Part shown: piece by piece, positions 6,054-51,496 of the stretch | How the letters are laid out: every line of letters begins with the position of its first letter | How positions within the stretch are numbered: the stretch's first letter is position 1 | NCBI GenBank assembly: GCA_964291215.2 | Contig: OZ219791.1 | Coordinates: forward strand, 2,528,001 to 2,592,000 | Reading direction: 5' to 3' | Origin: Alphaproteobacteria bacterium | Lineage (GTDB): Bacteria > Pseudomonadota > Alphaproteobacteria > MPNO01 > UBA830 | Length of the DNA: 64,000 nucleotides | Program-made: the position numbers and the translations under genes | Notes under the pieces: model-generated | What the model was told of the DNA's origin: nothing | Database searches by the model: none | What the model saw: only the letters and a program-made list of their open reading frames with translations

Positions 6054-6156
6054 CGTAACCGTCGAACACCGACATCTGCACCCAAGTTGGCATTTTTGCA
6101 GCCTGGAATTTTTATCACGTTGCGCGATTTTTTGTCGGCCGATTTCAACATGGCAC

Positions 6157-9100
6157 GTATCTACTCACCCCTAGTTGGGTTCTGATTGGTCGTAGTGCTC
6201 GTTGATGATGTCTGCGGCTTTTCCGGCGAGTGCGATCTGGGTGGCGACGAGTGGGTTGTAGCCGAGTGCGGCCATGGAGGTGAGGTAGCTTGGCACCATG
6301 CTTTTGCGTGGAGCGGAAGCATCCGGACACCTTGACCTTTGCCACCCTGATCTTCTGTTCTTCGGCATTGTTGGTGAAGCTGACGTCGGGTGCGCCAGGC
6401 AAACTGGTGGAATGTGGCCGGGTGCAAGTCCCGAGAGAGGCTAACCACCACTTTCTCCGTGAACCATGCGTCGCCAGGCGAAGCGTTGGGGAGCGGCAGG
6501 CCAGGCTATTGAGCCACGAGATGCTTTGAAACCGGAGTGCCGAGGTCGTGGCCGAAGGCAACGAGCCGCGTTGGTGAGGGGGGCTCCGCGGGGTCCGAGA
6601 ACCATGGCCGAAGCAGGGACCTGGGAGGTCTTGCCCCTCTGTCGTGGAGGGGCCGCAGAGGAAAGGAACTAATCCGTAAACCGATGATGAACGAGAAGTC
6701 AGATTCGGCCATAGTACCGTTGAAGGCGGCGAACAAGGGTTCTTCGGAGCCTGCGGAGTTGCTGGAGGGAAGGGCAATGCGGTTGGCCCGCGCCGCGCGC
6801 AGAAGCGGGGGTCACAGGCGGCTGAACGCAGGTAGCGAAGAGGAACCCGGAAGAGCGTCTTTACTCCACCACGTGACGGTCGACGCTCTGCACGATGCGT
6901 TCCATTCCTTGAGGAAGGACGCGGCGGCGGGGCGTTGTGTGGCAAGCGTATGCGGAGGGTGTGGAACTGCCTGCACGCCCGTGTGCACAGGGGTGCGTAC
7001 CGGGCGCCTCCGGGGTTTACATACCCAAGGAGGATGGAGGGCAACGACCGCTTGCCTCGGACAAGATTCTTCAGCGGGCGGTGTGATTCTGGTGCCGCGA
7101 GACGGAGTTCCTCGGGTTTAGTTACGGCTTCCGGCCGGGGCGCATCATGCGCTCGATGCCGTCACGGTGGAACGGCGGAAGGTCAACTGGATCGTTGACG
7201 CCGACATCCGTGGGTTCTTCGACAATCTCGACCGCGACCATCTGGTCGCGATGCTCGGGAAACGGATCGGGGGGTCTGATCATCAAGTGACGCCGGCGTC
7301 ATGGAAGGGACCGACTGGCAAGGGAACACCGCAAGGGGCGGCGCCATGCCTTGCGAACGTCTACCTGCACTACGTGCGACTGGTTCCAGAACCACTGGCG
7401 CAAGCGGATGGCTGGAGGCGACACGATCATTATGCGGATGACTTCGTGTGCGGCTTTCAGCATCTGGGCGACGCGCGGCGCTTTCTCCGAGACCTTGGGG
7501 AGAGACTGGCCCACTTGAACTGCACCCGGAAAATCATCGAGTTCGGTCGGTTTGCCAGAGCAAACCGCCGGAAGCAGGGCAAGACGTTCGACTTCCTCGG
7601 CATGACGCACTTCTGCGAACAGACGAGGAAAGGCAGGTTCAGGGTCGGTCGCAAACCATCTCGCAAACGGGCACCCTGCGGCGGATCAAGGAGGCCTTGC
7701 GCAGGCGGTGGCACGATAACCGGCACGAAACGGCCAAGTGGTGAGTTATCAACGGCTGCTACTACGCCGTTCCAGGAAGCAGCCTGCAGAAGTTCATACA
7801 CCAATGCAAACAGCTGCGTGCCCTTCGGCGACGCTCCCAAAAGGACTTCACCGGGGACGTAGACACCCTCACCGCTGCCCACTGAGCCAGCATCCGCCAC
7901 CCGTGGCCAAACCAGCGCCTTGTCGTCAGGGGAGGAGCCGGATGCGAACAGCGCACGTCCGGTTCTGTGCGGGGGGTAACCCGGTTCCCTACCGCGATGG
8001 TCTTCTGTGAAGCGCAGGTTTTCGTGTTTCACGAGACGCAGGTTGTGCGCGTTTGCGATGCGTTTTCCTTTCGGCGGCGGCGGGATGTCGGGCAGTTCCT
8101 TGGCGCCCTGATGGTGCGGTAGCGCTTGCGCACGGTCCGGTTCAGGGTCTTGGATGCGCTCTTGTTGACCTTGTGGCAGACCTCGCGGAGCAGGCTCTTC
8201 ATCAGTCGCGCCCAGCGGTAGCCTCGACGACGAAGGTCAGTTCGCGCAGCAGGTGGCTGCCGCACAGCTGGTGGCTACACTGGCCCATGTACGAGGCCCA
8301 GGACGCGCTTGTAGCATGGGATGATCTCTCGCCTCCCGGCCGCGCTTGCGGTGCGGGAACTTGCACGTCAGGGTTCCGACGACATGGAGCCACTTACTGT
8401 TGATCCGAAATCGTAGACATCGGGCGTTGCAGGAGGTGCGCCACGGCGGCCTCCGACGCGAGCGCATTGTGAAAGCATAGCCGAGGCCTCGGAGAGCTTG
8501 ATGCCGGAGGTCGCCTGCACGAGCGCGACGGCACGGCGCAGGGACAGCATCTGGACGACCAGCAGGTTGATGACGAGGGCCTGGATGCCGATGCCGTACT
8601 GCACGGGATGTTGTCGGGGAACCGGCCCCGGGCTTTGCACTTCGGGCATTCCTTGATCTCGGCGCGGCGCTCGACGACCTCGAACACGATGTCGTGCGGC
8701 GCTCCCGATCGACGGGGTCGACGCCGTCGGCGCCGCAGGCGTCGCAGGCATCGACCGCCTCCTCGACGATGGTCTTGCGCAGGTTGTCGCCCATCTGCCG
8801 GTTCGGCTTCGGGCCGTTGCTTCCGGCACGCTCTTGTCCGTCTGTGACGGCGGCAGACCGGAGTTCCGGCTCGTGCGTAGTCTTCTCCAAAAGGACGACG
8901 ATGAGGATGTCGAGCAGGATGACGAAGATGCGGATCACGGCCTCTTTCGGCACCTTGCCGGCCGCACGCAGCGCCGCGACCTTGGCCGCTTCGAACTCCT
9001 CGCGCGCCGCGTTGACCGTCGCCATCACCCGGCCTCGCCGCGAGCATCGCCTGGCGCTCGCTCGGCGGCATCTTCCGGTACTCCGCCTTGCGCTTCATCA

Positions 9101-9324
9101 GCGCACCGCCTCCGAGATGCGTTTCCACATACAGATCATGCGGGGGCTGGAGCCCCGGAAGCAGCTGGCACAGCCCGCTCGTCGCCTTCGATCCAAAGTA
9201 GCCCACTGGCGGTCCCCGTCGTTCTCGATGACCACCACTAAACGAATCGGGTGTCAAATTTCCACGAAAACCCGTTCGTTGCTCTACCCCGACATCATGC
9301 CGGAACCAGGGGGTGAGCAGTTAC
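6157..9324 (-). mobile_element. IS66-like element copy 1 (degenerate; contains a group II intron)
   Basis: Ends GTATCTACTCACCCC / GGGGTGAGCAGTTAC; 8-bp TSD CATGGCAC (6149-6156, 9325-9332); fragments NSGLPPSQTD, HQLCGSHLLREL, FTNNAEEQKIR.AKVK.SGCFRS. Confidence 0.88.
6390..7998 (+). mobile_element. Group II intron with degenerate reverse transcriptase ORF
   Basis: 5' GTGCG; 3' domain V/VI GAGCCGGATGCG...GCACGTCCGGTTCTGTGCGGGGG...CCCTACCGCGAT; RT remnants DADIRGFFD, GTPQG, LANVYLHY, YADDF; removing it restores the IS66 sequence seen at 33501-33535. Confidence 0.88.
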
Positions 9325-9984
9325 CATGGCACTACATTCCGTTGAATTCTGTCAGCTTGTGAGGCGGCTCCTCGTGCGGCGGGTTCGACACCAGCTGCCG
9401 AGGAGATTTCGGCGACCTCGGCGGTGCGTGCCCTGTCGGTTGACGATCAATGCGCGCAGGCGCGTGGTGACCCTGGTTCCGCATGCTCTCGTGGATTGAT
9501 GTCTAGCACTTGTCGATGCCCCGCGCGGGGATCAGATGCACCGCGGCGAGCACGGCGATCAACAGGTGGGTGGCGATGCGCTGGCCGGGCGCAATCCGGG
9601 CTCGGATTTCAATGAACGGAAGGTGGCCTCGATATCCATGTCCCGAGCATCCATGTTTCCTGGCAAGGTTTTTGCGGGTGTCTGCGGTGATATTTTCTGT
9701 GGTTGTCCACAAGCGGTGTGGGATTTGCCCTGCGAGCGAGGCGACATGAAGCTTGTGGTCCCGGCGGCGGGTTGCCGTCCATTGGTCACGTGAACGCGGC
9801 TACCTTGCCGCCCCCGGGCACGTGACCGTCCGGGTTCCAGGTGTCCCAAGGCGGTTCGATCTCCTCGATGTCGGCCTCGACGATGATCTGCAGACATTCT
9901 CCCCAAGTCGTGTCGGAGACTGTCGAGACAGTCCCGATCGCGCTCTCGGCAGGGCCGTGTCTCCTTCGCTCACTCACCGGTGCT

Positions 9985-10731
9985 TCAGGCAACGCTGCTG
10001 TCGCAGCAAGGTGTTCGCCAGAGCTTGCGCATCACGGCGACAATGGCGACTTTGTGGGCCTTGCCGGCGGTCTTGTGGCGCACCAGATCCGCGTTGAAGC
10101 GTGCTGCCGAGGTCGCGGCCAGGAGATCACGTGGCCTCCGGCGCCCGCCTCGGATATGCCGAGCACCGTGGTGCTGGCCACTGTCGTTGGCCATCGGCGC
10201 CACCCCGATCAAGGCTGCCGACGCTGCCGAGTTCGGGCATCCAACAAAGAAGGGCTGCGGCGGTCACTGGATCGAGGTCAGGGTACCTCTGCTCGGGATC
10301 ACCGGCGATCACCGCTTTGATCGCCGCGCCGGCAATGCGGTCATCGAGATCGGCCGCCGAAGCCCTTGTGACGGTCTCGCCATCCACCTCATCTGCCACT
10401 TGCCTCAACTTGGTCCGCACGTCGACAAGCGCGGCGCCAGGAGATCCCCCAGGCAGTTGAGGAAGGCTTCCTGAGGAGCCACAGGCTCGAGATCGCACCG
10501 TGCCGATCTTGGCGTCAACGCGGTTGGCCCAAAGCCTCGGCGAAGCCCTCAACGGGCAGGACAACCTCGAAGCCCCGGTCATGAAGACACTGGTGAACCT
10601 TGCGGTGATAGCGGCCTGTCGCCCACCACACGGGTTACCTCGAGGCTGCGAAGCCACGTGCCCGTGGCGTCGTTCGTAAAACGACGCCCCAGATGTCCAG
10701 ACTGGCTGACCCCTGCTACTACCTTAACCAT
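9985..10731 (-). pseudogene. IS110-family recombinase pseudogene
   Basis: Fragments MVKVVAGV, NRVDAKI, PVTAAALLCWMPELG, GVAPMANDSG...RHIRGGR, AGKAHKVAIVAVMRKL; multiple frameshifts. Confidence 0.8.
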
Positions 10732-12486
10732 CGTCCCTTGTTCCTCGCCTTATGATGATACGGTTCAAACCCAAGCATCCATTCAGGACGCAAGGGACGC
10801 CAAAGGAGGTTGCCACGCTCGGGAACGGCTCTATAAAGCCAAGGACGGAACGGCAACCTCCGCGGAGATCGTTTGATCCCCGCTCCCCGCTCCCCTGTAC
10901 GTTCTCACACAGGGGAGCGGAATCTCTTTGCAACCATAGCTCTCCCATAGTCGAGGTTATCCACATTTTCCCGCCCCCAACTGCTGTGGATGATTTCATC
11001 ATCAAGGGGACAAAACCTAGTCATATAAGGACGGTCTCGATATCCCGGTCGCTGGTGCGCAGGCGCCCGCGTTGTCTTGTCGTCTGTGGCTGAAGGCCGT
11101 TGCGTTGGCCTTCTCGACGGTGATCTCGTTGTGCCGGGCGACGGTGGATAAGCGCTGCTTGAGACCGCTCTCCAGCACCTTGTCGTGGCGCCGGCCCTTG
11201 GCCGAGAGGTGGAGCTTTGCTGCCTCGAAGCCCTGCGGCCAGGAATGGCGTCCTCGGCCCTCTTCTTGCTCTCGCTGACCACGCAGAGCCTCGCCATCCT
11301 CGCTGGCAAGGCGCCTGCACCTCGTGGTTGGTGCTGATCGATCAGCAGGGCCTCGGTGGCGATGCCGGCGTCCATGACTACCGTCGGCTTTGCCGCCGGG
11401 CCCGCCTCCAGCCTCGACAGCGCATCCGTGCCCGGCCATGTTGCCCCGCAAGACCTCGCAACTGCGCCGAAAGCCCGCGCCGCGCAAGCGTGGGGCAATC
11501 ATTGCGCTTCGAGCGCCCGAAGCGGGGGAGCTTGCCGTCGGCGCGGCCGTGAACATTGGTGAGGTCGCAAAAGGCGATGGTGTCGGGGATGCAGCGCGCG
11601 CTCGCGGTTGAACAGTTCCTTCCGGATGGCGGCCCGGTGGCGCAGGTCGCCGATGCGGTACAGCGTCTTGCGCGCCTTGCGCTCCAGATCCGGAAGCTCC
11701 GCGGTCGTGCTGTCATGGCGCAGCCAGCGCTCGCTGGCCGGATGAATCATCCTGGCGACGATCAGCGCACTCGCGGCCCGTGATGCCGAGATCGTGAAGC
11801 CGAGATCGCGTCTCGGGCACAGGCGCTCGCCCGAGCGCGGGTTCTCGTGCTTGAGGCTGTCGAGGTTGACGGTCGCAGTTTGCGTGCGTCTTCCTCAGGA
11901 GCGTCGGCGCGGAACCTCCGGGGCCCCTGTTGACGATGTCCTCGGCTGCGGCCTGCACGCGGCTTCGAACAGCGGCGGGCGGCCGTGGACGGGTTTGCCC
12001 CCACCTTTGCCCGTCTGCGGTGCTGTGGGTTTTGGTTGCCCTGATGAACATGTTGTCTGGAGCCTTTTGTGTTGACGGGGCTCCGGATATACTGGGTTTG
12101 GCGGCGGGGTCGAGTGAATCGGCAATATTCTGGCACCACAACGGCCATCTTGGACAGGAAGTCACAAATATAGTGGATATGTGCGCATAATACATCAATA
12201 TACAGTATATGAAGCGGGCTACCGCATAAATTTCCCCTTCAACTGACGCAAAAAGTGCCAACTTGGGTGCAGATTCATCGGGCTGATCGTTTGATTTGGG
12301 TAATCGTGGCCGCAAATCTGGAATCGTACTCTCGTCCGACAATAGCGGAATCCAAACGCATCGAGGTTCGTGTTATCTCGGATCGGGCTCCCTGATCGCA
12401 ATTTTCCGCACCAAGCGAGCCTCGACGGCGCTTGCAGCGTGGCAGCAGGTACAAGAAAAATACTACCGATCGTCGTGAAAGCTAAA

Positions 12487-13675
12487 GATGCCCGCCAAAA
12501 TAGATTGATTATTATGTCCGTGGCGCGAGGGTATAGTTCCACTCGCCGTGGAACGGGTCTCTGCGGACGGCGAGGCCATCCATCTGATCGTCGCTGACCT
12601 TGACCCCGAGCGGATAGCTGTTCTCGTCGAGGTGCGAGCATATGGGGAGGCCGGTGGTGGTCGCGGCGATCAGCTTGACGATCACCTGGTAGCTGACGAG
12701 GGGGCGCCAGTTCCGGGTGATATGGCAGAACATCCGGTGCTCGATCTTGTTCCACTTTCCGGGCGGGAAGTGGGCCACCGACACCTTCAACCCGAGTTCG
12801 TCGGCGAGGTGCTGCAGCTTCCACAGCCGGTTGCGGCTGCTGTTGGAGCCGTCGGCGGTGATCAGCAGGCGCCTGGCATCGGGATAAAGCAGCTGGCCCA
12901 TCTGCCGCCACCAGCAGCCTCGACCGCGAATGCCGCCGTGTCGTGCCCGACGCTGACCCGGCCGGCGTTGGCGGTGAGATCGTAGACCCCGCAGGGGATC
13001 CGAGCTCCGGATCGGGGAAGTCATGCACGTTGACGGCCTCAGGGTCGCCCTTGGGGCGCCATTCCCGGCCGCGGTACTGGCCAACGATTTCCTTCTTCTT
13101 GGTGTCACCACAGGCTGGCCTCTGGAACGTGCGCACCCGGCGCGTCGGAACTGCGCATCTCGGGCTGGCGGCCTTCCAGCGTCTTGCGATTGGCCTGAAG
13201 GCTGTACCCCAGGAGCAGCCGGTTCACCGTGCGCTCGCTGACGCGGTGGCCCTCGACCGCAAGACGGTCCGCCAGCCGTGCGGCACTGTGACACCGTAGC
13301 GGACTCTCCGGATCGCCGCGCGTCATCGGTTCAAGCTCGCGCTCCAGCGCCGCCACCAACTCCGGATCCGTCACCCGCTTGCGCCCGCCCCCGGGGCGAA
13401 GCAAACGTCCTCAAGGAACCTCACTCGAAAACTCCGAGACCGCATCAAGCTCCTTCAGCCCGGCGCGAACGGTGCCGCGCGACATCCCCGTCGCCTCGGC
13501 CACTCGCCTCCGCGCCCGATGGCACGGGCCTCCGTCGCCGCCCACAGGCGCCGCACACGTTCGTTCAGAACCGGACGCAACACCACAAACTTGGATCGCA
13601 GCGTATCGACCATCGCTTCCATGACATCATCGATGGCAGATCCACACCAAAAAACAATCTATTTTGGCGAGAATC
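12487..13675 (-). mobile_element. ISAzo13-family element (degenerate transposase)
   Basis: IRs GATGCCCGCCAAAATAGATTG / CAATCTATTTTGGCGAGAATC; motifs RPGGGRK, TRGDPESPL, GYSLQANRKTLEG, DTKKKE, VHDFPDPELG, HFPPG..KWNKIEHRMF. Confidence 0.85.
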
Positions 13676-15831: not shown

Positions 15832-18006
15832 GTGCGCCAGGCTAACTGGCAGAATGCCGCCGGGTGAAAGTCCCGGCAGGAAGAGAGGCTAACCACCACT
15901 TCCTCCGTGAATCATGCGTCGGATGTCGCGAGGCGAGGCGTTGGGGAGCGGCAGGCGTGGGCCGGGCTATTGAGAGCCACGAGATTCAGGTCAAACCGGA
16001 GTGCCGAGGTCGTCCGCCAAGCCGAAGGCAACACCCTGCGAGCCGCGTTGGTGAGGCAAGCAGGGGCTCCGCGGGGTCCGAGAACCATGGCACGCGCCGA
16101 AGCAGGGACCTGGGAGGTCTTTCAATTGCCCCATTGTCGTAGAGGGGCCGCAGAGGAAAGGAACCATTCCGGTAACTGCTCACCCCCTGGTTCCGGCATG
16201 ATGTCGGGGTAGAGCAACGAACGGGGTTTCGTGGAGATTTGACACCCGATTCGTTTAGTGGTGGTCATCGAGAACGACGGGGACCGCCAGTGGGCTACTT
16301 TGGATCGAAGGCGACGAGCGGGCTGTGCCAGCTGCTTCCGGGGCTCCAGCCCCTGCATGATCTGTATGTGGAAACGCATCTCGGAGGCGGTGCGCTGATG
16401 AAGCGCAAGGCCGGGCGGCGGAGTACCGGAAGATGCCGCCGAGCGAGCGCCAGGCGATGCTCGCGGCGACCGTCGAGGCCGGGTGATGGCGACGGTCAAC
16501 GCGGCGCGCGAGGAGTTCGAAGCGGCCAAGGTCGCGGCGCTGCGTGCGGCCGGCAAGGTGCCGAAAGAGGCCGTGATCCGCGTCCTCCTGCTCGACATCC
16601 TCATCGTCGTCCTTTTGGAGAAGACCACGCGCAAAACGAGCCGGAACTCCGGTCTGCCGCCGTCACAGACGGACAAGGACGAGAGCGCGAAGCGTGCCGG
16701 GAGCAACGGCAAAGGCCCGAAGCCAAACCGGCAGATGGGCGACAACCTGCGCAAGACCATCGTCGAGGAGGCGGTCGATGCCTGCGACGCCTGCGGCGCC
16801 GACGGCGTCGACCCCGTCGATCGGGAGCGCCGCGTCCTCTACGACATCGTGTTCGAGGTCGTCGAGCGCCGCGCCGAGATCAAGGAATGCCCGAAGTGCA
16901 AGGCCCGGGGCCGGTTCCCCGACAACATCCCGTGCAGTACGGAATCCAGGCCCTCGTCATCAACCTGCTGGTCGCCCAGATGCTGTCCCTGCGTCGTGCC
17001 GTCGCGCTCGTGCATGCGATCTCCGGCATCAAGCTCTCCGAGGCCTCGGCTATGCTTTCACGATGCGCTCGCGTCGGAGGCCGCCGTGGCGCACCTCCTG
17101 CAACGCCCGATGTCGACGATTTCGGATCAACAGTAAGTGGCTCCATGTCGTCGGAACCCTGACGTGCAAGTTCCCGCACCGCAAGCGCGGCCGGGAGGCA
17201 AGAGATCGGCCCGTGCTACAAGGGCGTCTTGGACTGCTGGGCCTCGTACATGGGCCAGTGTAGCCACCAGTTGTGCGGCAGCCACCTGCTGCGCGAACTG
17301 ACCTTTGTCGTCGAGGCTACCGCGCGACTGATGAAGAGCCTGCTCCGCGAGGTCTGCCACAAGGTCAACAAGAGCGCATCCAAGACCCTGAACGACCGCC
17401 GTGCGCAAGCGCTACCGCACCATCAGGGCGCCAAGGAACTGCCCGACATCCCGCCGCCGCCGAAAGGAAAACGCATCGCAAACGCGCACAACCTGCGTCT
17501 CGTGAAACACGAAAACCTGCGCTTCACAGACGACCCTGATGTCAGCTTCACCAACAATGCCGGAGAACAGAAGATCAGGATGGCAAAGGTCAAGGTGTCC
17601 GGATGCTTCCGCTCCACGCAAAAGCATGGTGCCGGGGCTCAAGCTACCTCACCTCCATGGCCGCACTCGGCTACAACCCACTCGTCGCCACCCAGATCGC
17701 CCTCGACGGAAAAGCCGCAGACATCATCAACGAGCACTACGACCAATCAGAACCCAACTAGGGGTGAGTAGATACCCATTCCGTAACCCGATGATGAACG
17801 AGAAGTCGGATTCGGCCATGGTACCGTCGAAGGCGGCGAACAAGGATTCTTCGGAGCCTGCGGAGTTGCTGGAGGGAAGGGCAATGCGGTTGGCCAAAGC
17901 CCGCGCCGCGTGCAGAAGCGGGGGAGCGGGTCACAGGCGGCCGAACGCATACGACAAGCTGCGAAGAGGAATCCGGAAGAGCATCTTGTGACGTTGCTCC
18001 ACCACG
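15832..18006 (+). mobile_element. Group II intron 5' part (same family as 6390-7998), interrupted by IS66 and truncated at IS256
   Basis: Begins GTGCGCCAGGCTAACTGG; aligns with 6390-6872 across the IS66 insertion; ends in the RT N-terminus (RIRQAAKRNPEE..VTLLHH). Confidence 0.82.
16172..17775 (+). mobile_element. IS66-like element copy 2 (degenerate)
   Basis: Ends GTAACTGCTCACCCC / GGGGTGAGTAGATAC; 8-bp TSD CCATTCCG (16164-16171, 17776-17783). Confidence 0.9.
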
Positions 18007-21000
18007 CGGCGCCATCGTGCTATCCCATGGAGCTGAAAAACACTCATGGAGGAAGCGAATGGACCTGCGACACACTACGACGATCGGGACTGTTTTGGAA
18101 CATCTGATCGCAAACGGAGCAACGGATCTGGGGCGGGTCTTTGGCCAGCTCTTCGAGCTTGCGATGCGCGCGAGCAGTACTTGAAAGCGGGCCACCGGAC
18201 ACCGGAACGACAGGGCTATGCCAACGGCTACAAGCGGATCGACACTCCCGCTGTTACCGTTCAGGTGCCAAAGACGGCCGGTCACGGGGACGACCCGTCC
18301 CCAGTCGCTTGAACGCGGCCAGCGATCTTCTCGCGCCGTCATGCTGGCCGTAGCCGAGATGTACATCAAGGGTGTTTCCACACGGCAAGATGTAATGCGC
18401 GAGTTCGGGAGCCTGTCCTCTTCTCAGGTCAGCCGGGCCACCAGGTTGCTCGACGAAGAACTCACCACCTGGCGCAACCGGTCCCTGATGAAATACCTGA
18501 TCCTGGATGCGCGCTACGAAAAAGCCCGCCATGACGGCGTTGTGCGCGATGTTGCAGTGCTCTCGGCCATCGGAATAGGGGCTGCAGGCACGTTCTGGGG
18601 CTCTCTGTGGCGCTCTACGAGGCCGAGATCCGAGCCTTCCTGGAAAGCTTGCTAGCCCTGCCATGTCATGAAAATTAGGTCTGGACGTGCCACTCGGTCT
18701 GCGCTAGCTTGCCGCCATGATGGCACAATCCAGCATTCTTCACACTCTACGCGAGGACGGGGCCCGGGCGCGCGTTGCTGCCATCCTGTCGCGGGAGCAG
18801 CACTCCGGCCGTCGGGCTGCGAGCCGTATGCGAAGAGTTTTCGTTCCGGGACGCGGCCGGGCGTTGGCAGCTGTCGAGTTGTCTGAAGGCCCTGACCACG
18901 TTGGCATCGTCGTATCCGGAGATCCGGCTTCCGGCACCGCAGGCTGCTGCCAACTCTCCGCGTCTTCTTGACGGAGAAGTGCCGGTCGGGGTGCCGTCCC
19001 GTCTGTCAGGGATGGCGCAGGTGCGGTTGTCGGTGGTGACCGAGGTTTCGGAGCGAACGGTATGGAACACGGCGCGCGAGCATCCTCATGGCATGACGAC
19101 GTTTGCCGGCTGTCAGGTGCGCTATCTTGTGACGTCGGAGCACGGGATCCTGGGTGCGGTCGGGATCTCGGCGGCGGCGTTGACGGGCCCGCGACCGCTG
19201 GATGGCGCCGTCCCGGCGACGGGATCATCGGGTGGTCTGTCTGAGTCGGTTTCTGCTTCGGGTGCGGTGCCGGGAGCCATGTTCTGGGGCGACTTCTCCG
19301 GCGTCTGCCGAGGGATTTCGAGGCCCGGTATGGATTCCGTCCCCTGGTGGTGGAAACCTATGCGGACGAGGGCTATGCTGGGACCTGCCTGCGGGCTGCG
19401 AACTTCGTATGTGCGGGGCGGACGAAGGGTCGTCAGGATCGTCACCATCGCGCTGCCAAGACGGTCAATGGATGCGCGGTCTGGATCGGCGACGCAAGCT
19501 GGGGGTGGGTCCGGTCGCTCCTGCCGGGGCCCGGAGACGGTCTGGATGCTGCGGTGTGGGCGGTGAACGAATTCGGAGGGGCGGGTGACAAGCGACTGTC
19601 GGCACGCCTGGTGAAGAGTGCGGCTCTTCTGGCCTCCTGTCCCGGATTCACGCGAGCACGGATGCCGACAACACGGCGATCAGTGCTTTCTACCGCCTGA
19701 TCGAGAAGCCGGTGGAGAGTGCGGTGGCGAACATTCTTGCTCCGCATCGGGAGCGCACGATCCGGGGCCAAACGACCGTGCTGGCGATTCAGCGACCTCA
19801 ATTTCTCCCGGCGGCCGGGATGCGAAGGTCTTCAGGTCATCGGCAAGAACCAGACCTCCTCGTCGGCCCGGGGTCTGCATGCGACGCTGGCGGAGACGGG
19901 GTTGCCGCTCGGGGTTCTGCGTCTGGGGTTCGATGCGGTGAAGCAGCGCTCCCCGGCGGCCGAGGAGCGGTTGAAGAGCCGGCGCGGAAGGCTTCAAGGA
20001 CATCGACGAAGCGGTCCGCGACGTCGGGAACAAGACGCGCGTGATCTCGGTCTGTGATCGGGAAGCGGACTTCTTCGAGCTGTCATCAACGTCTCAACCC
20101 ACGGGTCGGGCTTCTGCATGACCGGGTTCTCGGCAAGGGGCGCGCTGTTTGCAACCTTGAGCGCAGGCCCGGCGGCATCACCGTCGAGGTCGACGGCGAG
20201 CGTCCGAAGGCGAGCCGAACGAAGGCGCCCGACGCAAACGCGTGGCTCAGTGCGCACTGCGGTTCCGCCGCCTTGCCCTCCACCCTCGAAGGCCGCTCGC
20301 CCTTTCCGGTGTCCACATCATCGAAACCGATCCTCCCGAGAACCCGGTGCAGTGGTTCCTGCTCACCACGCTCAAGGTGCGCAGCGCCGAGGACGCCGCC
20401 AAGATGGTTGGCTTCTACCTCCAGAGGTGGAAGGTCGAAGACTTCTTCCGCGTCCTCAAGTCAGGCTGTCGCACCGAGTTCCTGCTGTTCCGGACCGCAG
20501 AACGACTGCAGCGGGCCATCGCCATCAACGCCGTCATCGCGCATCATGGTCATGACCCTGCGGCAGGTTCCCGACTGTGAGCCCGAGCTGATGTTCACCG
20601 ATCAAGAGCTGAGCTTCCTGCGCGACTACGCCGCCGAGAAGCGCATGACGCCCGCCTCGGGGATGCCGTCCGCCTGGTGGCCCATCTCAGCGGGTACCAG
20701 GATCGCAACCCGAGCCCGGACACCAAGTCATGTGGCACGGCGCGACCCAGCGCCGTTCTTGGCCATCAAGTCGGCTTCCGGGCCGGACAGCGGCAACCCT
20801 TGCAACACATTCAGGCCCTTGACGTCACGTCGTAATTGTCATTACTCGGCAGTGCTAGCCCGTGGCCTGCATGGTACGACCTTCATCGTCTCGGATGACC
20901 ATGCTGGGCTGAAAGCAGCACGACGCGCGGTGCTGGGCGCGGCGATGTGGCAGCGCTGCCAGTTCCACCTGGCGCAAAACGCCGTGCACCGAACAACGAC

Positions 21001-29192: not shown

Positions 29193-29342
29193 TTACGGAG
29201 ATTGTAAGGCGTGATGCCCTGATCTTGGCGATGCTCAAGATGCTCGATGAAACGGTCTAGATGGGCCTTGACCGCTGGATACTCATCAGCATTGATCGGG
29301 GGCACATCAGCATATCCGTTGTGCGTGTCGATCAACCAAAGG

Positions 29343-29533: not shown

Positions 29534-29535
29534 GA

Positions 29536-30498: not shown

Positions 30499-31643
30499 CG
30501 CTGCTTCTGGAAGTCCGTTGACTAGCCTTCTCCACAGCCACTCGAAGAGCATGAAGACTCGGCAGCGGCGGCTCGTCCGGCTCCGCCGCCAACTCGCCCC
30601 GCTTCCAGCGCCACGCCGCCGTTGCCGGGAATCTCTCCTGCCACCACCGGCGCCACCGCAGGGGGCAGAAGGTACTGTAACTTGATGTCTGGAAATTTGT
30701 CTGAGGTTTGCGCTTTGAGGCGTTTCACTGGGGGGGCTAGCCCCCCAGTGAAGCGCGGCGCCATCGTGCTATCCCATGGAGTTGTAAAACCTTCATGGAG
30801 GAAGCGAATGGACCTGCGACACACTACGACGATCGGGACTGTTTTGGAACATCTGATCGCAAACGGAGCAACGGATCTGGGGCGGGTCTTTGGCCAGCTC
30901 TTCGAGCTTGCGATGCAAATCGAGCGCGAGCAGTACTTGAAAGCGGGCCACCGGACACCGGAGCGACAGGGCTATGCCAACGGCTACAAGCGGATCGACA
31001 CCCCCGCTGTTACCGTTCAGGTGCCAAAGACGGCCGGTCACGGGGACGACCCCCCCCCCAGTCGCTTGAACGCGGCCAGCGATCTTCTCGCGCCGTAGCC
31101 GAGATGTACATCAAGGGTGTTTCCACGCGGCAGGATGTAATGCGCGAGTTCGGGAGCCTGTCCTCTTCTCAGGTCAGCCGGGCCACCAGGTTGCTCGATG
31201 AAGAACTCGCCGCGCAACCGGCCCCTGATGGAATACCTGGATGCGCGCTACGAAAAAGCCCGCCATGACGGCGTTGTGCGCGATGTTGCAGTGCTCTCGG
31301 CCATCGGAATAGGGGCGCTGACGAGCGCAGGCACGTTCTGGGGCTCTCTGTGGCGCTCTCCGAGGCCGAGGTCCGAGCCTTCCTGGAAAGCTTGCTAGCC
31401 CTGCATGGTACGACCTTCATCGTCTCGGATGACCATGCTGGGCTGAAAGCAGCACGACGCGCGGTGCTGGGCGCGGCGATGTGGCAGCGCTGCCAGTTCC
31501 ACCTGGCGCAAAACGCCGTGCAGCACGCACCGAACAACGACATTAGGAAACGTATTGGAAAACAGCTCGGAGCCACGCCTCCTCACTCCAAACCGCCGAG
31601 GCTGAACTGGCCGCCCTCGTGGCCAGCTATCGCGACAAGCACC

Positions 31644-33023
31644 TGTCGCTAACAAGCGATATGTCCGGTGGATGTAACATGCGATCTGTCCGGTTCAGAT
31701 GCTTCATAAATGAGGAAGCCGATGAATCGGACAAGAGTGTTACAGGAATTACGGATTATGAAGTTTGAAGAGTTGTATTCACGAAGGCAGGCGAAGCAGT
31801 TGAGCCAGGAGCAGGCCGCCGAGATTCTTGGTGTATCTGTGCGTTCGGTGCGTCGCTGGGAGGAGCGCTACGAGGCGGAAGGAGCCGAAGGTCTTTATGA
31901 CAAGCGCCTTGGCCGTCTGGCTGGCAACCGCGTTCCGGTCGATACGGTGACGGAGGTTCTTGAGTTGTTCGACACCCGCTACTGGGACTACACGGCCAAG
32001 CATTTCCACGAGAAGCTGGTCAAGGACCACGGGTTCACGCACAGCTACAACTGGGTGCGCCTGACGCTTCAGGCCAACGGCCGGGCGGCCCCGCGCCGCG
32101 GTGCGCATCGCCGCAAGCGTGCTCCGCGGCCGATGGCGGGCATGATGCTGCACCAGGACGGCTCCACTCACGAATGGGTGCCCGGACAGTCGTGGGATCT
32201 GATCGTGACCATGGACGATGCCACCAGCGAGAGCTACTCGGCCTTCTTCGTCCCCGAAGAGGGCACGATGAGCACCTTTCAGGGCATCCAGGAGGTGATC
32301 GAGGCCAAGGGCCTGTTCTGTTCGCTTTACGCCGATCGGGGGTCGCACTACTGGCACACAGCCGGCGGCAAGGTCGACAAGGACAACCTGACCCAGGTGG
32401 GCCGGGCGCTCCAGCAGCTCCGCATCGAACTGATCCCCGCCTATTCGCCTGAGGCGCGCGGCCGCTCGGAGCGCATGTTCGGCACACTGCAGAAGCGTCT
32501 GCCGCAGGAATTGCGTACACAGGGCATCGAGACGATGGACGAAGCCAATCTCTTCCTCAAGGATGTCTTCCTGCCCGATCACAACGCCCGGTTCATGCGC
32601 AAGCCGGAAGATGGGGGATCGGCTTTCATGGACTTCGCCGGCAACGTTGGCGACATCCTGTGCGTGCAGGAAGACCGCGTCGTCGGCAACGACAATACGG
32701 TGCGCTACAAGGGACGCGTGCTGCAGATCGCGAGCCACCGCCACCATTTCGTCAAGGCGCGCGTCAGGGTGCACGAATATCCTGACGCCTCGCTGGCCGT
32801 GTTCCACGGCCCCATGTGCATCGGCCGGTATCAGTCTGACGGCCAACCGGCCGGGAAGGAGAAAACGATCGAGAAGGCTGCGTGAACCGCTTCGGCGCGG
32901 GCCGAACGCAGCCGGTCAAGCCTGCGGTCGCTACCGCTCCCTTCGGCTTGACCGGCTGCGCCACCAACAGAAGCGGACAAACCGCATGGTACCTAGACCG
33001 GACAACTCAGAATGTTGTCGACA
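31644..33023 (+). mobile_element. IS1202-family (IS481-related, formerly ISNCY) element with 17-bp TSD
   Basis: TGTCG...CGACA ends with internally repeated TGTCCG; direct repeat CTATCGCGACAAGCACC at 31627-31643 and 33024-33040. Confidence 0.88.
31710..32885 (+). CDS. IS1202/IS481-like DDE transposase
   Basis: HTH (QAAEILGVSVRSVRRW), MLHQDGS, MDDAT, YADRGSHY, SPEARGRSERMFGTLQ; open 391 aa. Confidence 0.88.
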   Translation: MRKPMNRTRVLQELRIMKFEELYSRRQAKQLSQEQAAEILGVSVRSVRRWEERYEAEGAEGLYDKRLGRLAGNRVPVDTVTEVLELFDTRYWDYTAKHFHEKLVKDHGFTHSYNWVRLTLQANGRAAPRRGAHRRKRAPRPMAGMMLHQDGSTHEWVPGQSWDLIVTMDDATSESYSAFFVPEEGTMSTFQGIQEVIEAKGLFCSLYADRGSHYWHTAGGKVDKDNLTQVGRALQQLRIELIPAYSPEARGRSERMFGTLQKRLPQELRTQGIETMDEANLFLKDVFLPDHNARFMRKPEDGGSAFMDFAGNVGDILCVQEDRVVGNDNTVRYKGRVLQIASHRHHFVKARVRVHEYPDASLAVFHGPMCIGRYQSDGQPAGKEKTIEKAA

Positions 33024-34268
33024 CTATCGCGACAAGCACCCAGGCTTCGCAGACTGGCTGGAAAACAATGCGGGGCTCGCTGTCTTCACCTTGCCCGATG
33101 CTCACCGCAAGCGCATGCGAACCTCGAACGGCATCGAGCTCCAGCAAGAACTCAAGCGGCGCACCTCCAAAGTCAGGGTCTTTCCAAACCTTGCCTCGTT
33201 GGAGCGCCTCTCAACCGCGGTCCTCGTCGAGATCGACGAAAAATGGGAAACCGAAACCAAGGCATACATCAAATGGGGTATCTACTCACCCCTAGTTGGG
33301 TTCTGATTGGTCGTAGTGCTCGTTGATGATGTCTGCGGCTTTTCCGTCGAGGGCGATCTGGGTGGCGACGAGTGGGTTGTAGCCGAGTGCGGCCATGGAG
33401 GTGAGGTAGCTTGAGCCTCGGCACCATGCTTTTGCGTGGAGCGGAAGCATCCGGACACCTTGACCTTTGCCATCCTGATCTTCTGTTCTCCGGCATTGTT
33501 GGTGAAGCTGACGTCGGGGTTGTCTGTGAAGCGCAGGTTTTCGTGTTTCACGAGACGCAGGTTGTGCGCGTTTGCGATGCGTTTTCTTTTCGTCGGCGGC
33601 GGGATGTCGGGCAGTTCCTTGGCGCCCTGATGGTACGGTAGCGCTTGCGCACGGCCCGGCGTCGTTCAGGGTCTTGGATGCGCTCTTGTTGACCTTGTGG
33701 CAGACTTCGCGGAGCAGGCTCTTCATCAGTCGCGCCCAGCGGTAGCCTCGACGACGAAGGTCAGTTCGCGCAGCAGGTGGCTGCCGCACAACTGGTGGCT
33801 ACACTGGCCCATGTACGAGGCCCAGCAGTCCAGGACGCCCTTGTAGCACGGGATGATGCCGATCTCTTGCCTCCCGGCCGCGCTTGCGGTGCGGGAACTT
33901 GCACGTCAGGGTTCCGACGACATGGAGCCACTTACTGTTGGTCCGAAATCGTCGACATGCAGGGCCGGGCGTTGCAGGAGGTGCGCCACGGCGGCCTCCG
34001 ACGCGAGCGCATCGTGAAAGCATAGCCGAGGCAGGTTGCCTCGGAGAGCCTGATGCCGGAGGTCGCCTGCACGAGCGCGACGGCACGACGCAGGGACAGC
34101 ATCTGGGCGACCAGCAGGTTGATGACGAGGGCCTGGATGCCGATGCCGTACTGCACGGGATGTTGTCGGGGAACCGGCCCCGGGCCTTGCACTTCGGGCA
34201 TTCCTTGATCTCGGCGCGGCGCTCGACGACCTCGAACACAATGTCATAGAGGACGCGGCGCTCCCGAT

Positions 34269-35741
34269 CGATTACGCAACCTGATGTCTGGAAATTGTCG
34301 TGAAGCTGATCGAGCTGTTCCCATTTGATGTATGCCTTGGTTTCGGTTTCCCATTTTTCGTCGATCTCGACGAGGACCGCGGTTGAGAGGCGCTCCAACG
34401 AGGCAAGGTTTGGAAAGACCCTGACTTTGGAGGTGCGCCGCTTGAGTTCTTGCTAGAGCTCGATGCCGTTCGAGGTTCGCATGCGCTTGCGGTGAGCATC
34501 GGGCAAGGTGAAGACAGCGAGCCCCGCATTGTTTTCCAGCCAGTCTGCGAAGCTTGGGTGCTTGTCGCGATAGCTGGCCACGAGGGCGCCCAGTTCGGCC
34601 TCGGCGGTTTGGAGTGAGGAGGCGTGGCTCCGAGCTGTTTTCCAATACGTTTCCTGATGTCGTTGTTCGGTGCGTGCTGCACGGCGTTTTGCGCCAGGTG
34701 GAACTGGCAGCGCTGCCACATCGCCGCGCCCAGCACCGCGCGTCGTGCCGCTTTCAACCCGGCATCCGAGACGATGAAGGTCGTACCATGCAGGGCTAGC
34801 AAGCTTTCCAGGAAGGCTCGGACCTCGGCCTCGGAGAGCGCCACAGAGAGCCCCAGAACGTGCCTGCAGCCCCTATTCCGATGGCCGAGAGCGCTGCAAC
34901 ATCGCGCACAACGCCGTCATGGCGGGCTTTTTCGTAGCGCGCATCCAGGATCAGGTATTTCATCAGGGGCCGGTTGCGCCAGGCGGCGAGTTCTTCGTCG
35001 AGCAACCTGGTGGCCCGGCTGACCTGAGAAGAGGACAGGCTCCCGAACTCGCGCATCACATCTTCGGCCAGGGCTCTTCTTTTTCCCGGTTTCGTCCGAC
35101 GAGGGGGCGTTGTAGGCAGATCTGGAGGTCCATTCAGGAGCGGACTTCGTTGTCGATATGCCGGTTTCGATCTTGAGACGGTGCCACCAACTTCAAGAAC
35201 GGCCACTCTGACACGGTTGTCTGCCGCCGACCGCGACAACAGAATGGTCCTGCATCTTCGGCCTGCCGTGTGGAAACACCCTTGATGTACATCTCGGCTA
35301 CGGCCACGGCGCGAGAAGATCGCTGGCCGCGTTCAAGCGACTGGGGATAGAACGGGTCGTCCCCGTGACCGGCCGTCTTTGGCACTTGAACGGTAACAGT
35401 CCCGACGGGGGTGTCGATCCGCTTGTAGCCGTTGGCATAGCCCTGTCGCTCCGGTGTCCGGTGGCCCGCTTTCAAGTGCTGCTCGCGCTCGATTTGCATC
35501 GCAAGCTCGAAGAGCTGGCAAAAAACCCGCCCTAGATCCGTTGCTCCGTTTGCGATCAGATGTTCCAAAACAGTCCCGATCGTCGTAGTGTGTCGCAGGT
35601 CCATTCGCTTCCTCCATGAAGGTTTTACAACTCCATGGGATAGCACGATGGCGCCGCGTTTCACTGGGGGGCTAGCCCCCCAGTGAAACGCCTCAAAGCG
35701 CAAACCTCAGACAAATTTCCAGACATCAAGTTACAGTACCC
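34269..35741 (-). mobile_element. IS256-family element copy 3 (degenerate; contains a MITE)
   Basis: Both IRs present; near-identical to copy 2 in reverse orientation. Confidence 0.87.
35069..35252. mobile_element. 184-bp MITE with CAGG ends and 10-bp TSD
   Basis: Ends CAGGGCTCTTCT / AGAATGGTCCTG; TSD CATCTTCGGC (35059-35068, 35253-35262); absent from the other IS256 copies. Confidence 0.8.
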
Positions 35742-36455
35742 CTATCCCCCTATCCGACGGGGTCGACGCCGTCGGCGCCGCAGGCGTCGCAGGCATCGAC
35801 CGCCTCCTCGACGATGGTCTTGCGCAGGTTGTCGCCCATCTGCTGGTTTGGCTTCGGGCCTTTGCCGTTGCTCCCGGCACGCCTCGCGCTCTTGTCCGTC
35901 TGTGACGGCGGCAGACCGGAGTTCCGGCTCGTTTTGCGCGTGGTCTTCTCCAGAAGGACGACGATGAGGATGTCGAGCAGGAGGACGCGGATCACGGCCT
36001 CTTTCGGCACCTTGCCGGCCGCACGCAGCGCCGCGACCTTGGCCGCTTCGAACTCCTCGCGCGCCGCGTTGACCGTCGCCATCACCCGGCCTCGACGGTC
36101 GCCGCGAGCATCGCCTGGCGCTCGCTCGGCGGCATCTTCCGGTACTCCGCCGCCCGGCCTTGCGCTTCATCAGCGCGCCGCCTCCGAGATGCGTTTCCAG
36201 ATACAGATCATGCGGGGGCTGGAGCCCCGGAAGCAGCTGGCACAGCCCGCTCGTCGCCTTCGATCCAAAGTAGCCCACTGGCGATCCCCGTCGCTCTCGA
36301 TGACCACCACAAAACGAATCGGGTGTCAAATTTCCACGAAAACCCGTTCGTTGCTCTACCCCGACATCAAGCCGGAACCAGGGGGTGAGCAGTTACCAAA
36401 TGGGAACAGCTCGATCAGCTTCACGACAATTTCCAGACATCAGGTTGCGTAATCT

Positions 36456-36698: not shown

Positions 36699-37185
36699 GC
36701 CCGAGACCATCGCCTGACACGGCAGCCCCTTGAGCAGTTCAAGGAGTTCGACATGGTCGGAATCGGTGCAGTCGTGGCGGCACCGCCGGCCCGACCGGCG
36801 AGTCGCCTGCAGGTACGGCGGGTCGCTGCAGACCAGTTCCGTGCCCCGGAACGCAAAGCCGGCCAGGAACGCGTGGGCGCAGCCAGTTTCACCGGATAGT
36901 CGCACCCGAACCCGTCCGGCGCTCCCGGTCGAACACGGCGCCGGCGCCTTGTGCTTCATCAGCGCGCCGCCTCCCGGATGCGTTTCCACATACAGATCAT
37001 GCGGGGGCCGAAGCCCCGAAAGCAGCTGACACAGCCCGCTCGTCGCCCTGGATCCAGAGTAGCCCATCGGTGGCCCCCGTCGTTCTCGATGACCGTCACT
37101 GAACGAATCGGGTGTCAAATCTCCACGAAAACCCGTTCGTTGCTCTACCTCGACATCAAGCCGGAACCAGGGGGTGAGCGGTTAC
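36699..37185 (-). mobile_element. Left part of an IS66-like element carrying a Dam-like DNA adenine methyltransferase pseudogene (ATG 37067)
   Basis: Left end GTAACCGCTCACCCC; MGYSGSRATSGL..PPHDLYVETHPGGGA (motifs X/I) and SDPPY (motif IV), DHVELLELLKGLPCQAMVSG. Confidence 0.75.
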
Positions 37186-46887: not shown

Positions 46888-46930
46888 GGCATCCCTCCCG
46901 GTACGCGGGAACCGGGAGGTCTGGGCGGCC

Positions 46931-48698: not shown

Positions 48699-48817
48699 GC
48701 AAGCGTTTGGTCACGCAGTGAGGCATAATGGAGCTGAGCGAATGCGGGCGAGATTCGGGACAGTGCGTAGTTGCCACCGTCATCCCCGTCACCGTCACCC
48801 ATTGACCGAACGCTTAC
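48699..48817. mobile_element. 119-bp MITE with IS66-type ends
   Basis: Ends GCAAGCGTTTGGTCA / TGACCGAACGCTTAC; 8-bp TSD TGCCTGAC (48691-48698, 48818-48825). Confidence 0.8.
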
Positions 48818-48912
48818 TGCCTGACTTGGAGAACCGGAACAACTGGCAACAGGAGGAACCCGATGACACAGGAAAAGCCGTCAGGCCTGGGCAGGAAGAG
48901 CCGTATGACGGG

Positions 48913-49093: not shown

Positions 49094-49316
49094 GTTCCGA
49101 CCCACGGCGATCCCATGCTGATTCCGAGACTCGAAATCCAAATGTGTTGGGGCTCGCGTAATCACATATCGCCCCTTGATCGCAATTTTTCGCGCCGAGA
49201 AAGTCTCATTGAGCCTTGGCGGCACGATTGCAGCGCGACGCAGACCGAAAAATCTCGCCGGTCGCCGCTGGATTAGCAGCGTGGGATCGTCGTGGGTTCC
49301 GACCGGTCCCGTATAT

Positions 49317-51496
49317 CTTTCAACTTATCACTGTAGACTCGAAGCAACTGATGCCGTATATACGGTTCCATGAGAATTGGCCTGCGACATTATGGCGGCG
49401 AGACGGTTGACTGGCTGAAGGCACGGCTTGGCGCCGGGGATTGCACGCGGACCTTCCTGGCACGTGAGCTCTGCGAGCGTGAGGACTGGCGGAACGCGAA
49501 GGGAGAACTATGCCTCGCCTCGGCCCGGGCCGCGCTTCCAAAGTTCTCCGCCGCACTCGGTCTGCCTCTGCCGGAGGCTCGTCCGATGGGAGGGGTAACC
49601 CCGGAGTCCCTGGCCCCGTCGCCGGATTATCCCGACAAGCACCTGTCGTGCCATCTCGGCGATCTTGGCGAGGTGGTTCCGGTTGCCGACGAGGACAAGT
49701 CGCTGGCGCGGTCGATGATGGCATCGCACCATCCCGAGGGCGATGCGGCCTGTCCCGGCGGGCGCATCCGCTACTGGATTCTCTCGTCCCTGCACGGCGT
49801 CCTCGGCGGCCTGGCGCTGCGTCCTGGCATCACAAAGCGCGGGACCTTCACATCGGCTGGCGGCGCGGGACGCTAACATCGGGCGGGTTGTCAACAATGA
49901 CAGGTTTCTTCTGCTTCCCGGCGTCCGTGGCGCTGTCGCTGTTCCATGATCGCGTGACTGGGAGGAGCGCTACGGTGTTCGCCTGGCGTACAGCTACGTG
50001 GGTGCGGAGCATACGGGCCAGAGCTACCGTGCGGCGGTGTGCTGCCGGACAAGAGGCCTCGGTTGCGGGTGTACATGAAGCCGCTGTCGGCGGACTGGAG
50101 GGAGTCTCTCGGGCGGGCGCCGGGCCGGGTGATCGGTTCAGGTCCGCCTCTCGCGTCAAGGGAGGATGCGACATGGGCCGAGACGGAGTACGGACGGAGC
50201 GCGCACAGCGACGCACGCAAGCGCCTTGTCACGATGGGCGAGGCCTGGTGCGGTCGTCCGGGTGCACCGCTGCCGATAATCTTTCCCGGCGAGGCGGAGC
50301 AGCAGGCGGCTTACAGGTTCCTGTCGAACCCGAGGATCGGCATGCAAGACATCCTTGAGCCACATCAGGAGGCGATGGTCGAGCGTTGCCAGTCTGTCGT
50401 GCTTGCGGTTCAGGACACAACGATGCTGAACTACAGCGAGGCGACGCAGGGCCTTGTCGACATCGGCGGCGGCGGCTCTGGAAGCAAGGGGATCGCGGCT
50501 CATGTCGGCGTTGCGTTCAGCGAGGGCGGCTGCGCACTGGGGGTATTCAGCCTTGATGCCGGCTTCCGTGCGGAGGACAAGGCAACGGCGGTGGAGGGCG
50601 AGGAAAGCGGACGCTGGACGGACGCCTTCGCCAAGTCCGCCGAGCTGGCCTGTCCGCGAACTCGCCCGTCTGCGACCGTGAGGGCGACATGTGGTCTCTT
50701 CTGTCGGAAGCCTGCGCCTCCGCGCCCAGCGGCTTCTGGTCCGCGCCAGCCGTTCGAGCCGGCGGCGGGCCATCACGGCGGACGGCAAGGTCAGGGACCT
50801 GTTCGCGCACGCGGCCGAATTGGATGTCGTCGCGGAGAAGACGATCGATCTGTGGCGGCCCCCGGACGCGCAAGGGGCGCAAGAACATCAAGCTGGAGCT
50901 GCGGGCTGGTCTCGTCGACCTCGTCCCGCCCTGGGCACGGCCCCACTCACCATGCTCGCAGTGCGCGTCCTGGAGAAGATGCCGCCAACAGGCAGGGACC
51001 GGCTCGACTGGTTGCTCTTGACCACCGAAGGTGAGCCCACGCAGGAGAACGCGATCCGCATCGTCGCCTGGTACGAGAAACGCTGGTTGATCGAAGAGTG
51101 GTTCGCGGCCGTCAAGACCGGAACGCGGATCAAAGACCGCAGGCTCAACGCCGCCGACGACCTGAGGAAGTGCCTCGCCTGCCATTACTGCATGCACCGT
51201 CATGTCCGTCGAGCGCCTCGCGCGGAGCGCATGCCGGCGCGCACGATCGTCCACGAGGACGAGATCCATGTCCTCGCCGTCCACATACCGAACCACCGCA
51301 GGCAACGCGGCCCCCGGATCAGGCGATCGCGGAGTTCGCCGTCAACACCGCGCGCCTCGCCGGATTCATCCCGTCGAAGCGCCAGCCCATGCCGGGCACC
51401 CACAAACTCTGGGAAGGATACCTGATCTTGTTCACTGAAAACTACCGGGCTATGCGCGACTACGCCAACATCGAGTCGACAGTGTACCATTGAAAG
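49317..51496 (+). mobile_element. Second IS4-family (Tn5-like) element with DUF4338-like N-terminus, degenerate
   Basis: IRs CTTTCAACTTATCACT / AGTGTACCATTGAAAG; 9-bp TSD CCCGTATAT; WAETEYG, YRFLSNP, LAVQDTT, WLLLTT, YEKRWLIEEWF..VKTG; RVVNNDRFLLLP. Confidence 0.85.

Follow-up and report, generated by a model that had tools for sequence, protein, structure and literature searches.

Short shared deletions in the repeated DNA of an alphaproteobacterium and their possible spread between copies

The loss of junk DNA from bacterial genomes is thought to reflect a weak deletion bias, dominated by 1-bp events, together with selection. The subject here is a stretch of 64,000 nucleotides (the window) from the genome of an alphaproteobacterium, in which insertion sequences (ISs) of the IS66 and other families, along with group II introns, have been worn down by many small deletions, most often of 5 to 7 bp. 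Across the genome, these deletions are shared among repeat copies through a DNA-level process that depends on repetition, is independent of the family of element, runs in one direction, has a lower edge at 5 nt, and transfers no flanking sequence. The deletions likely spread from one repeat copy to another, which would be an undescribed bacterial way of wrecking repeated DNA. The open-access literature (supplements and subscription papers being outside the scope) yielded no bacterial description of shared 5-7 bp deletions in repeats.

What is the closest described system? Deletion-biased nonallelic gene conversion in flies and primates, as set out in the portion of PMC3280953 drawn on here, likewise passes deletions between paralogues faster than they arise, with a bias of ~3.4:1. 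Its rate rises with similarity (in Drosophila), distance has little effect, and shrinkage is cooperative, all as in the genome described here, G000. Unlike that system, G000 is a bacterium with up to ~190 copies of an element, a sharp 5-7 bp size window, and a sequence motif; it has lost ~16% of element length at 1.5% single-nucleotide polymorphism (SNP) divergence, with no transfer of SNPs 3-10 bp away. Of the signs by which conversion is recognized, G000 displays sharing against phylogeny, a winning short allele, and dependence on similarity (partly confounded by SNPs inside the deleted site), but not tract transfer. A literature search found no case of deletion-biased conversion in bacteria.

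Fungal repeat-induced point mutation (RIP) introduces C-to-T changes via a methyltransferase-like enzyme and acts on two copies. G000 is RIP-like in its homology-sensing, family-independent destruction of repeats, visible as one spectrum across families and a copy-number dose; it is unlike RIP in that it shows deletions, is weak at 2 to 4 copies, and has no known dedicated gene. Gene conversion reportedly occurs among Wolbachia IS copies. Many of those copies are likewise nonfunctional, though PMC3205602, in the part drawn on here, describes no size-restricted, shared, directional microdeletions. The deletogenic slippage described for "Ca. Sodalis pierantonius" (PMC4948707) also produces multibase deletions in a GC-rich, IS-rich genome, but these span 2-100 bp at direct, gapped, or quasi-repeats in single-copy genes, whereas G000 has mostly 0-1 bp of microhomology and one size class, and its repeats are the target. 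The deletional bias of bacterial pseudogenes, as reported in PMC6054270, has power-law sizes with bumps at multiples of three and ~40% microhomology, with Ku/LigD often absent. G000 shares with it an excess of deletions over insertions and of 6-bp events, and differs in that 5- and 7-bp deletions are each commoner than 1-bp ones, 3-bp deletions are rare, and the load depends on copy number. Large loop repair, finally, is described as mismatch repair independent, nick directed with resynthesis, and acting on loops of 8-216 nt, and is said to operate in bacteria (PMC2504288); like it, the model below concerns loops too big for MutS, but with a bias to the short allele and no repair patch.

G000 comprises 6.15 Mb in two contigs, has 64% GC and a single 16S gene, and is 99% complete; the window is positions 2528001-2592000 of contig C2. 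The 16S gene shares ~89% identity with rhizobial copies borne on plasmids; for RuvC, identity to the Nisaea and Oceanibaculum proteins is 61-66%. Small word matches to sponge, coral, and marine metagenomes are no basis for a claim on habitat. Repeated DNA makes up ~37% of the genome, families with at least 50 copies 13%. Four genomes of the same genus served as comparators, their host DNA being 93% (G001) or 78-82% (G002 to G004) identical to that of G000. Repeats of G000 with at least 4-fold coverage were tiled (137 tiles, 130 analyzed), a deletion was called clean if no other change lay within 8 bp, and a union reference for IS66 was built from segments present in at least two copies. Samples covered 800 kb of the 6.1 Mb of G002 and 200 kb each of G003 and G004; repeats in the G003 and G001 samples were too few for scoring, and for two more elements of the window there were not enough full copies to score a spectrum. 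Combinations of alleles on a copy are, throughout, those assembled in the contigs.

Are the deletions real? The first-pass annotation of the window held that sibling copies of mobile elements differ by few substitutions and many deletions of 2-15 bp, and quoted nine strings from the IS66 copies, which are the following.

6157..9324, minus strand: IS66-family copy 1, single-open-reading-frame type, eroded (32 deletions and 29 substitutions against the union), with a group II intron inserted near the right end
16172..17775, plus strand: IS66 copy 2, full length, eroded (33 deletions, 26 substitutions), PF03050 fragment
33278..36396, minus strand: IS66 copy 3, eroded (8+19 deletions, 17+22 substitutions), with an IS256 copy splitting it
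36940..37185, minus strand: IS66 left-end fragment

All nine strings were located at IS66 copies, and alignment displays the deletions. Long and short variants lie at +16463 and -36088 versus -9031, at -8581 and -34133 versus +16938, at -34026 versus 8481 and 17038, and, as a three-way set, at +16672, -35878, and -8827; a quoted 11-mer has one additional match at 41850, inside a host gene. Genome-wide, 113 IS66 copies have both ends, and the 112 longer than 1.3 kb were retained. Against the union, the mean copy has 30.5 deletions (297 of 1,823 bp), 0.5 insertions, and 25.8 substitutions. Perfect 8-bp target duplications flank 80 of the 113 copies with both ends; among the 112, these duplications are intact in 81, with the deletion load unchanged. 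Aligned to the intact transposase of G001 in four frame segments, the union regains homology and most of the frame, which shows the extra pieces to be ancestral and the short forms to be deletions. Other families have the same polarity, G000 being without pieces present in the G001 and G004 homologues, and ambiguity is limited to exact tandem copies (24 of 658 events of 5-7 bp). In contigs assembled independently from two public runs, X8 and X9, the long and the short alleles both stand at high depth; run X9 represents a second strain, ~1% divergent in host DNA.

The sizes of the deletions are highly uneven. Among 1,071 distinct clean deletions, 152 are of 5 bp, 318 of 6 bp (the mode), and 188 of 7 bp, 658 together, with 108 of 1 bp and 78 of 2-4 bp; before de-duplication, the lower edge stood at 17 deletions of 4 bp versus 169 of 5 bp. 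The claimed deletions thus exist, but in a sharp peak and not a flat 2-15 bp range. The peak is common to IS66, IS110, IS256, ISAzo13, two unnamed families, and a group II intron, including its ribozyme domains. Microhomology, said to be frequent, characterizes a minority of the 5-7 bp junctions: 149 (23%) have at least 3 bp, versus ~50 (8%) expected, and 387 (59%) have 0-1 bp. The deleted pieces begin with D-T-Y on either strand in 259 of 658 events versus 173 expected (~1.5-fold), the two strands being alike (73 versus 46 and 86 versus 55.5 expected) with no coding-strand bias, and the motif is absent from single-copy events of G000 (20 of 80 versus 22 expected). What about the other species? 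Tiling of G002 yielded 34 events only, and pairwise indels, which are unpolarized and include some duplicates, were used instead; 128 of 180 are of 5-7 bp, and 80 of these 128 start with (A/T)T(C/T), versus 19.5 expected. Repeats of G004, where copy numbers are low, have 3 indels per 31 kb pair alignment.

Four candidate processes were rejected on these grounds. (i) Codon-phased deletion under protein selection would leave a phase bias, and there is none in 22, 39, and 26 events. (ii) Hairpin-loop excision was a by-eye impression that disappeared after microhomology matching (pairing across deletions, 4.04 versus 3.99). (iii) Mismatch-centered cleavage of the NucS/EndoMS kind finds no SNP peak inside deleted pieces and no NucS gene in G000; two NucS_C-like matches occur, in G002 only. 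(iv) An RNA-templated or transcription-linked process does not fit a motif equal on both strands.

Does the load depend on the number of copies? Pairs at 1-3% SNP divergence (up to 120 sampled per class) have 0.66 indels of 5-8 bp per kb in families of 2 copies, 0.37 at 3-4, 2.55 at 5-9, 5.5 at 10-29, 6.2 at 30-99, and 8.5 at 100 or more (5, 14, 33, 19, 53, and 76 pairs, respectively), while indels of 1-4 bp are flat across the classes. One 14-copy family has 10 deletions per kb but 1.6 SNPs per kb, in mosaic patterns. Genomic distance between copies has no effect on the deletions, and a proximity effect was rejected.

Single-copy DNA was compared between G000 and G001 (757 kb aligned from 1.17 Mb sampled of the 5 Mb of G001). 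Noncoding sequence (82 kb) has 47 deletions of 5-8 bp in G000 and 5 in G001 (P=2e-6), and the coding alignment (675 kb) has 32 in-frame 6-bp losses, of two residues each, versus 2. The view that host genes are untouched does not extend genome-wide, given these losses and the 48 of 567 single-copy orthologues of G001 genes that are disrupted in one of the two genomes. The disrupted genes (63 kb) have 32 events of 1 bp versus 11 of 5-8 bp. Deletions number 0.57 per kb in single-copy noncoding DNA, at most ~3 per kb in pseudogenes, and 8-28 per kb in repeat families, and there are ~0.1-0.5 distinct deletions per distinct SNP in repeats versus 0.01-0.02 in single-copy DNA. Purifying selection as the sole cause fails, since the 0.57 per kb stands against ~15 per kb in much younger IS66 copies. 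The deletion-biased regime that had been proposed is real. Because the load rises with copy number and single-copy pseudogenes differ from multicopy elements in both spectrum and rate, as ordinary decay would not have it, the data favor the option that the first-pass annotation had named last, a repeat-directed process.

How are the deletions distributed among copies? In tiles with at least 25 copies, the deleted form is the majority allele for 249 of 484 deletions, while 2,592 of 4,655 SNPs are singletons; a neutral constant-size model leads one to expect 14% majority deletions. A toy simulation gave a proportion of ~0.5 only under deletion-biased transfer and produced no majority deletions under neutral models. 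The 5-7 bp class makes up 40% of 173 singleton deletions versus 79% of 177 deletions at a frequency of at least 40%. Linkage at 5-15 bp is looser between a deletion and a SNP than between two SNPs (r2 of 0.13 versus 0.36). Of the 205 deletions in 13 tiles that contain two SNP clusters, 95 are present in both clusters, with four-gamete failures also seen. In these two-cluster tiles, the test for tract transfer gave no sign that foreign SNPs are in excess near the deletions that are shared: diagnostic SNPs 3-10 bp away were foreign in 4.4% of 885 carrier cells versus 7.8% of 476 noncarrier cells. Carriage at identical 5-bp flanks goes from 0.82 to 0.73, 0.53, and 0.33 as copy divergence climbs to 8-12%, and a SNP in the flank reduces it further; copies far from the family core still bear 3-4 deletions per kb of their own. 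One allele typically dominates a site (97 versus 1; 95 versus 1 and 1) although sizes vary from 5 to 7 bp, and overlapping alleles form 73 groups versus 80 +/- 4 by chance, which is little clustering.

What process could bring this about? Our preferred explanation, to which we give a probability of roughly 0.55, is deletion-biased, near-zero-patch conversion between ectopic copies. Repeat copies would pair briefly, probably by RecA-type pairing, and a 5-8 nt loop of the longer strand would be excised and the strand resealed with the shorter copy as a splint, after which the joint would be undone. The deletion would thereby spread while neighboring substitutions stay with the recipient. MutS binds loops of up to four nucleotides, as described in PMC8235422. 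MutSL presumably handles mismatches and loops no longer than 4 nt; this would account for the sharp lower edge at 5 nt and leave SNPs with the recipient. A putative nuclease, together with the NAD ligase, may remove the larger loops; sealing on the shorter copy would mean that no end-joining genes are needed. New deletions probably also arise more often in repeats, perhaps at resolvase nicks with the D-T-Y start motif. The outcome would be a cooperative, one-way destruction of every high-copy family, whether as a by-product of repair or as a defense.

The scale of the loss is considerable, with ~17,000 deletions of 5-14 bp having removed ~125 kb from 1.38 Mb of surveyed G000 repeats. If templated, the process would be a direct means by which an IS expansion can end and a deletional bias can arise in bacteria, with a testable size rule, namely, that deletions lie above the MutS limit. 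The enzyme involved would perform precise, scarless, short excisions on heteroduplex DNA. The pattern is also a warning against the use of shared indels in bacterial repeats as phylogenetic markers.

Which enzymes are available? MutS, MutL, RecA, RuvC, TopA, ExoVII, and PolA are intact in all five genomes, so none of them discriminates, while searches of the five found no Ku, ATP ligase, TopIB, Y1 transposase, Piwi, EndoV, or RtcB. Slippage or microhomology end-joining as the main cause, an earlier suggestion, is unsupported, since most junctions lack microhomology and neither Ku nor ATP-dependent ligase was found. Enzymes that nick and close DNA covalently, and end-joining (TopIB, Y1 transposase, ATP ligase, RtcB, and Ku, each 0 of 5) were rejected as candidates, as were Argonaute-guided defense (no Piwi gene in the five genomes) and self-targeting by CRISPR, for which 0 of 111 spacers match G000. 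The CRISPR arrays of G000, with Cas1 genes, lie at C1:574247-581180 and C2:2068487-2069543 (96 and 17 repeats of 36 bp). The start motif of the deletions, especially in G002, resembles the cleavage preferences of RuvC, given as (A/T)TT^(G/C) for Escherichia coli (PMC10956419) and (G/C)TC^(G/C) for Deinococcus (PMC9601230); as RuvC is ordinary in all five genomes, the resemblance is a lead only.

A number of observations weigh against conversion between ectopic copies. The absence of co-conversion is equally predicted by independent, precise recurrence, and large loop repair as described (PMC2504288) is nick directed rather than deletion directed. SNPs inside the deleted piece, present in 33-57% of noncarriers at 5-12% divergence, partly explain the fall in carriage, which above 8% divergence rests on few cells (58 and 7). 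The toy simulation did not yield the SNP linkage seen in the data and could not tell 30-bp tracts from a zero patch. One young IS66 subfamily, whose 12 copies are near-identical and intact (G000:C1:139001-145000), has zero deletions. Since functional genes are among the low-copy repeats, selection has a share in the low end of the curve, and the lineage-specific excess in single-copy DNA (47 versus 5) means that the input is partly genome-wide. In G000 the motif is weak (259 of 658 versus 173), and its offset would place a nick of the RuvC type 3 nt into the deleted piece, so that extra trimming would be needed. Among the families searched, moreover, no enzyme separates the affected genomes (G000 and G002) from the unaffected (G001 and G004).

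Might some species of the genus have a dedicated pathway? One doubtful proposal is a homology-sensing nuclease-ligase system, a counterpart of RIP acting by deletion, that would cut 5-7 nt from paired repeats, propagate the cuts, and sterilize elements past ~10 copies. No candidate for a dedicated repeat-inactivating enzyme appeared among the families searched.

An unlikely alternative is that nothing is copied at all: a repeat-activated nuclease, for example one acting at recombination intermediates, would cut the same 5-7 bp precisely out of every copy, each time independently, the local sequence fixing where the cuts fall. In a subfamily with 12% divergence, flanking SNPs as close as 2-5 bp to the junction are not transferred, as such recurrent, untemplated hot-spots would have it, and the effect of flank SNPs on carriage, the start motif found in repeats and absent from single-copy events, and the higher number of deletions per SNP in repeats all speak for them. 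A hot-spot motif ought, however, to be stronger in common than in rare deletions, and the two are equal (0.51 versus 0.48). Most sites have a single dominant allele despite the variation in size, carriage drops with whole-copy divergence at identical flanks, and the gap would have to be ligated, although none of Ku, ATP ligase, RtcB, and TopIB was found.

Less probable still is ordinary decay, in which a genome-wide deletion mutator working by slippage or end-joining, filtered by MutS, combines with amplification of eroded nonautonomous copies, unbiased recombination, and selection on host genes. It draws support from the excess of 5-8 bp deletions (and of in-frame 6-bp losses) in single-copy DNA of G000, from the threefold enrichment of microhomologies of at least 3 bp, and from IS66 ends that are nearly spared; SNP linkage in IS66 is also low, meaning that recombination among copies occurs. 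The single-copy genes, the copy-number dose, and the SNP clusters already largely contradict it. Disrupted single-copy genes are dominated by 1-bp events, the load per kb is ~25-fold higher in the younger repeats, neutral models yielded no majority-allele deletions, and the flanking SNPs that descent or tract conversion would carry are not seen. The ribozyme domains of the introns are eroded too, a poor fit with continued mobility. An artefact of assembly or polishing, in which consensus calling shuffles real deletion alleles among copies, is very improbable: although only contigs were compared, G000 and G002 are both near-complete assemblies, and the phasing of each copy rests on assembly, both alleles are at high depth in contigs of two runs, private SNPs that majority polishing would erase abound, the same assembly is clean in its 12-copy IS66 family and in 96 of 96 CRISPR repeats, the single-contig G004 has few indels, and the union restores protein homology.

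The remaining elements of the window are listed below. Erosion of the IS256, IS4, ISAzo13, IS110, and group II intron remnants, as first described, is confirmed by hidden Markov model (HMM) or Rfam family matches together with deletion counts; for the repeat at 11-12 kb called IS1634, the erosion stands but the label found no HMM support. The intron family at 6391..7998 has 59 long copies in the genome, with ~43 deletions per copy, and the ISNCY transposase gene provides an internal control free of erosion.

6391..7998, plus strand: eroded group II intron with a broken reverse transcriptase open reading frame (ORF); Rfam D1-D4-6 at 6425-6603, Intron_gpII at 7933-7998, RVT_1 fragment
9643..10760 (ends approximate), minus strand: eroded IS110-family remnant; 36 full copies with 32 deletions each; a fragment matches PF02371 and NF033542
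11028..11984 (ends approximate), no strand assigned: eroded repeat; 10 full copies, 18 deletions each; IS1634 label unconfirmed, no HMM match
12006..13620 (ends approximate), minus strand: eroded ISAzo13-family remnant; PF07592, NF033519
15829..16171, plus strand: 5' part of a second group II intron, broken by IS66 copy 2; Rfam match at 15867-16086
18004..18690 (ends approximate), plus strand: eroded IS256-family remnant, with a further part at ~20860-21400; PF00872
18699..20364 (ends approximate), plus strand: low-copy eroded element with a weak DruA/PF14236 match
30671..31641, plus strand: eroded IS256-family copy; 51 full copies, 13 deletions each
31710..32885, plus strand: intact ISNCY transposase, 1-2 copies (coverage 1-2), amid eroded elements; NF033594 above cut-off
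34269..35740 (ends approximate), minus strand: eroded IS256-family copy inside IS66 copy 3; PF00872 fragments
49316..51480, plus strand: eroded IS4-family remnant, 8-20 copies; NF033590, PF14706, PF01609

Some repeats elsewhere in G000 also deserve description. The young IS66 copies have long open frames and exist alongside old, eroded relatives that are 12% divergent; one copy has next to it an ORF that, by eye, resembles a DNA methyltransferase. A family of large repeat-domain proteins of surface type (domain type judged by eye), with 6-8 recombining loci, lies at C1:1115001-1124000, and a five-copy gene block resembling an integrative element, with mosaic SNPs, lies at C1:466000-472800; both are without deletions.

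Within the window itself, positions 48249-48900 hold the 5' region of a single-copy group II intron (subclass D1-D4-2), apparently truncated before the IS4 remnant. Positions 21819-30498 contain a PLD/SNF2 helicase and a restriction-modification gene of type IIG; after these come a second C-terminal IIG segment, which is inverted (28757-29557), and a tyrosine recombinase. Inverted arms of 203 nt, 98% identical, lie at 27961-28163 and 29331-29533, and the locus is likely an invertible specificity switch. Finally, an ORF with a HEPN domain (62401-63021) adjoins a 50-copy repeat at the end of the window.

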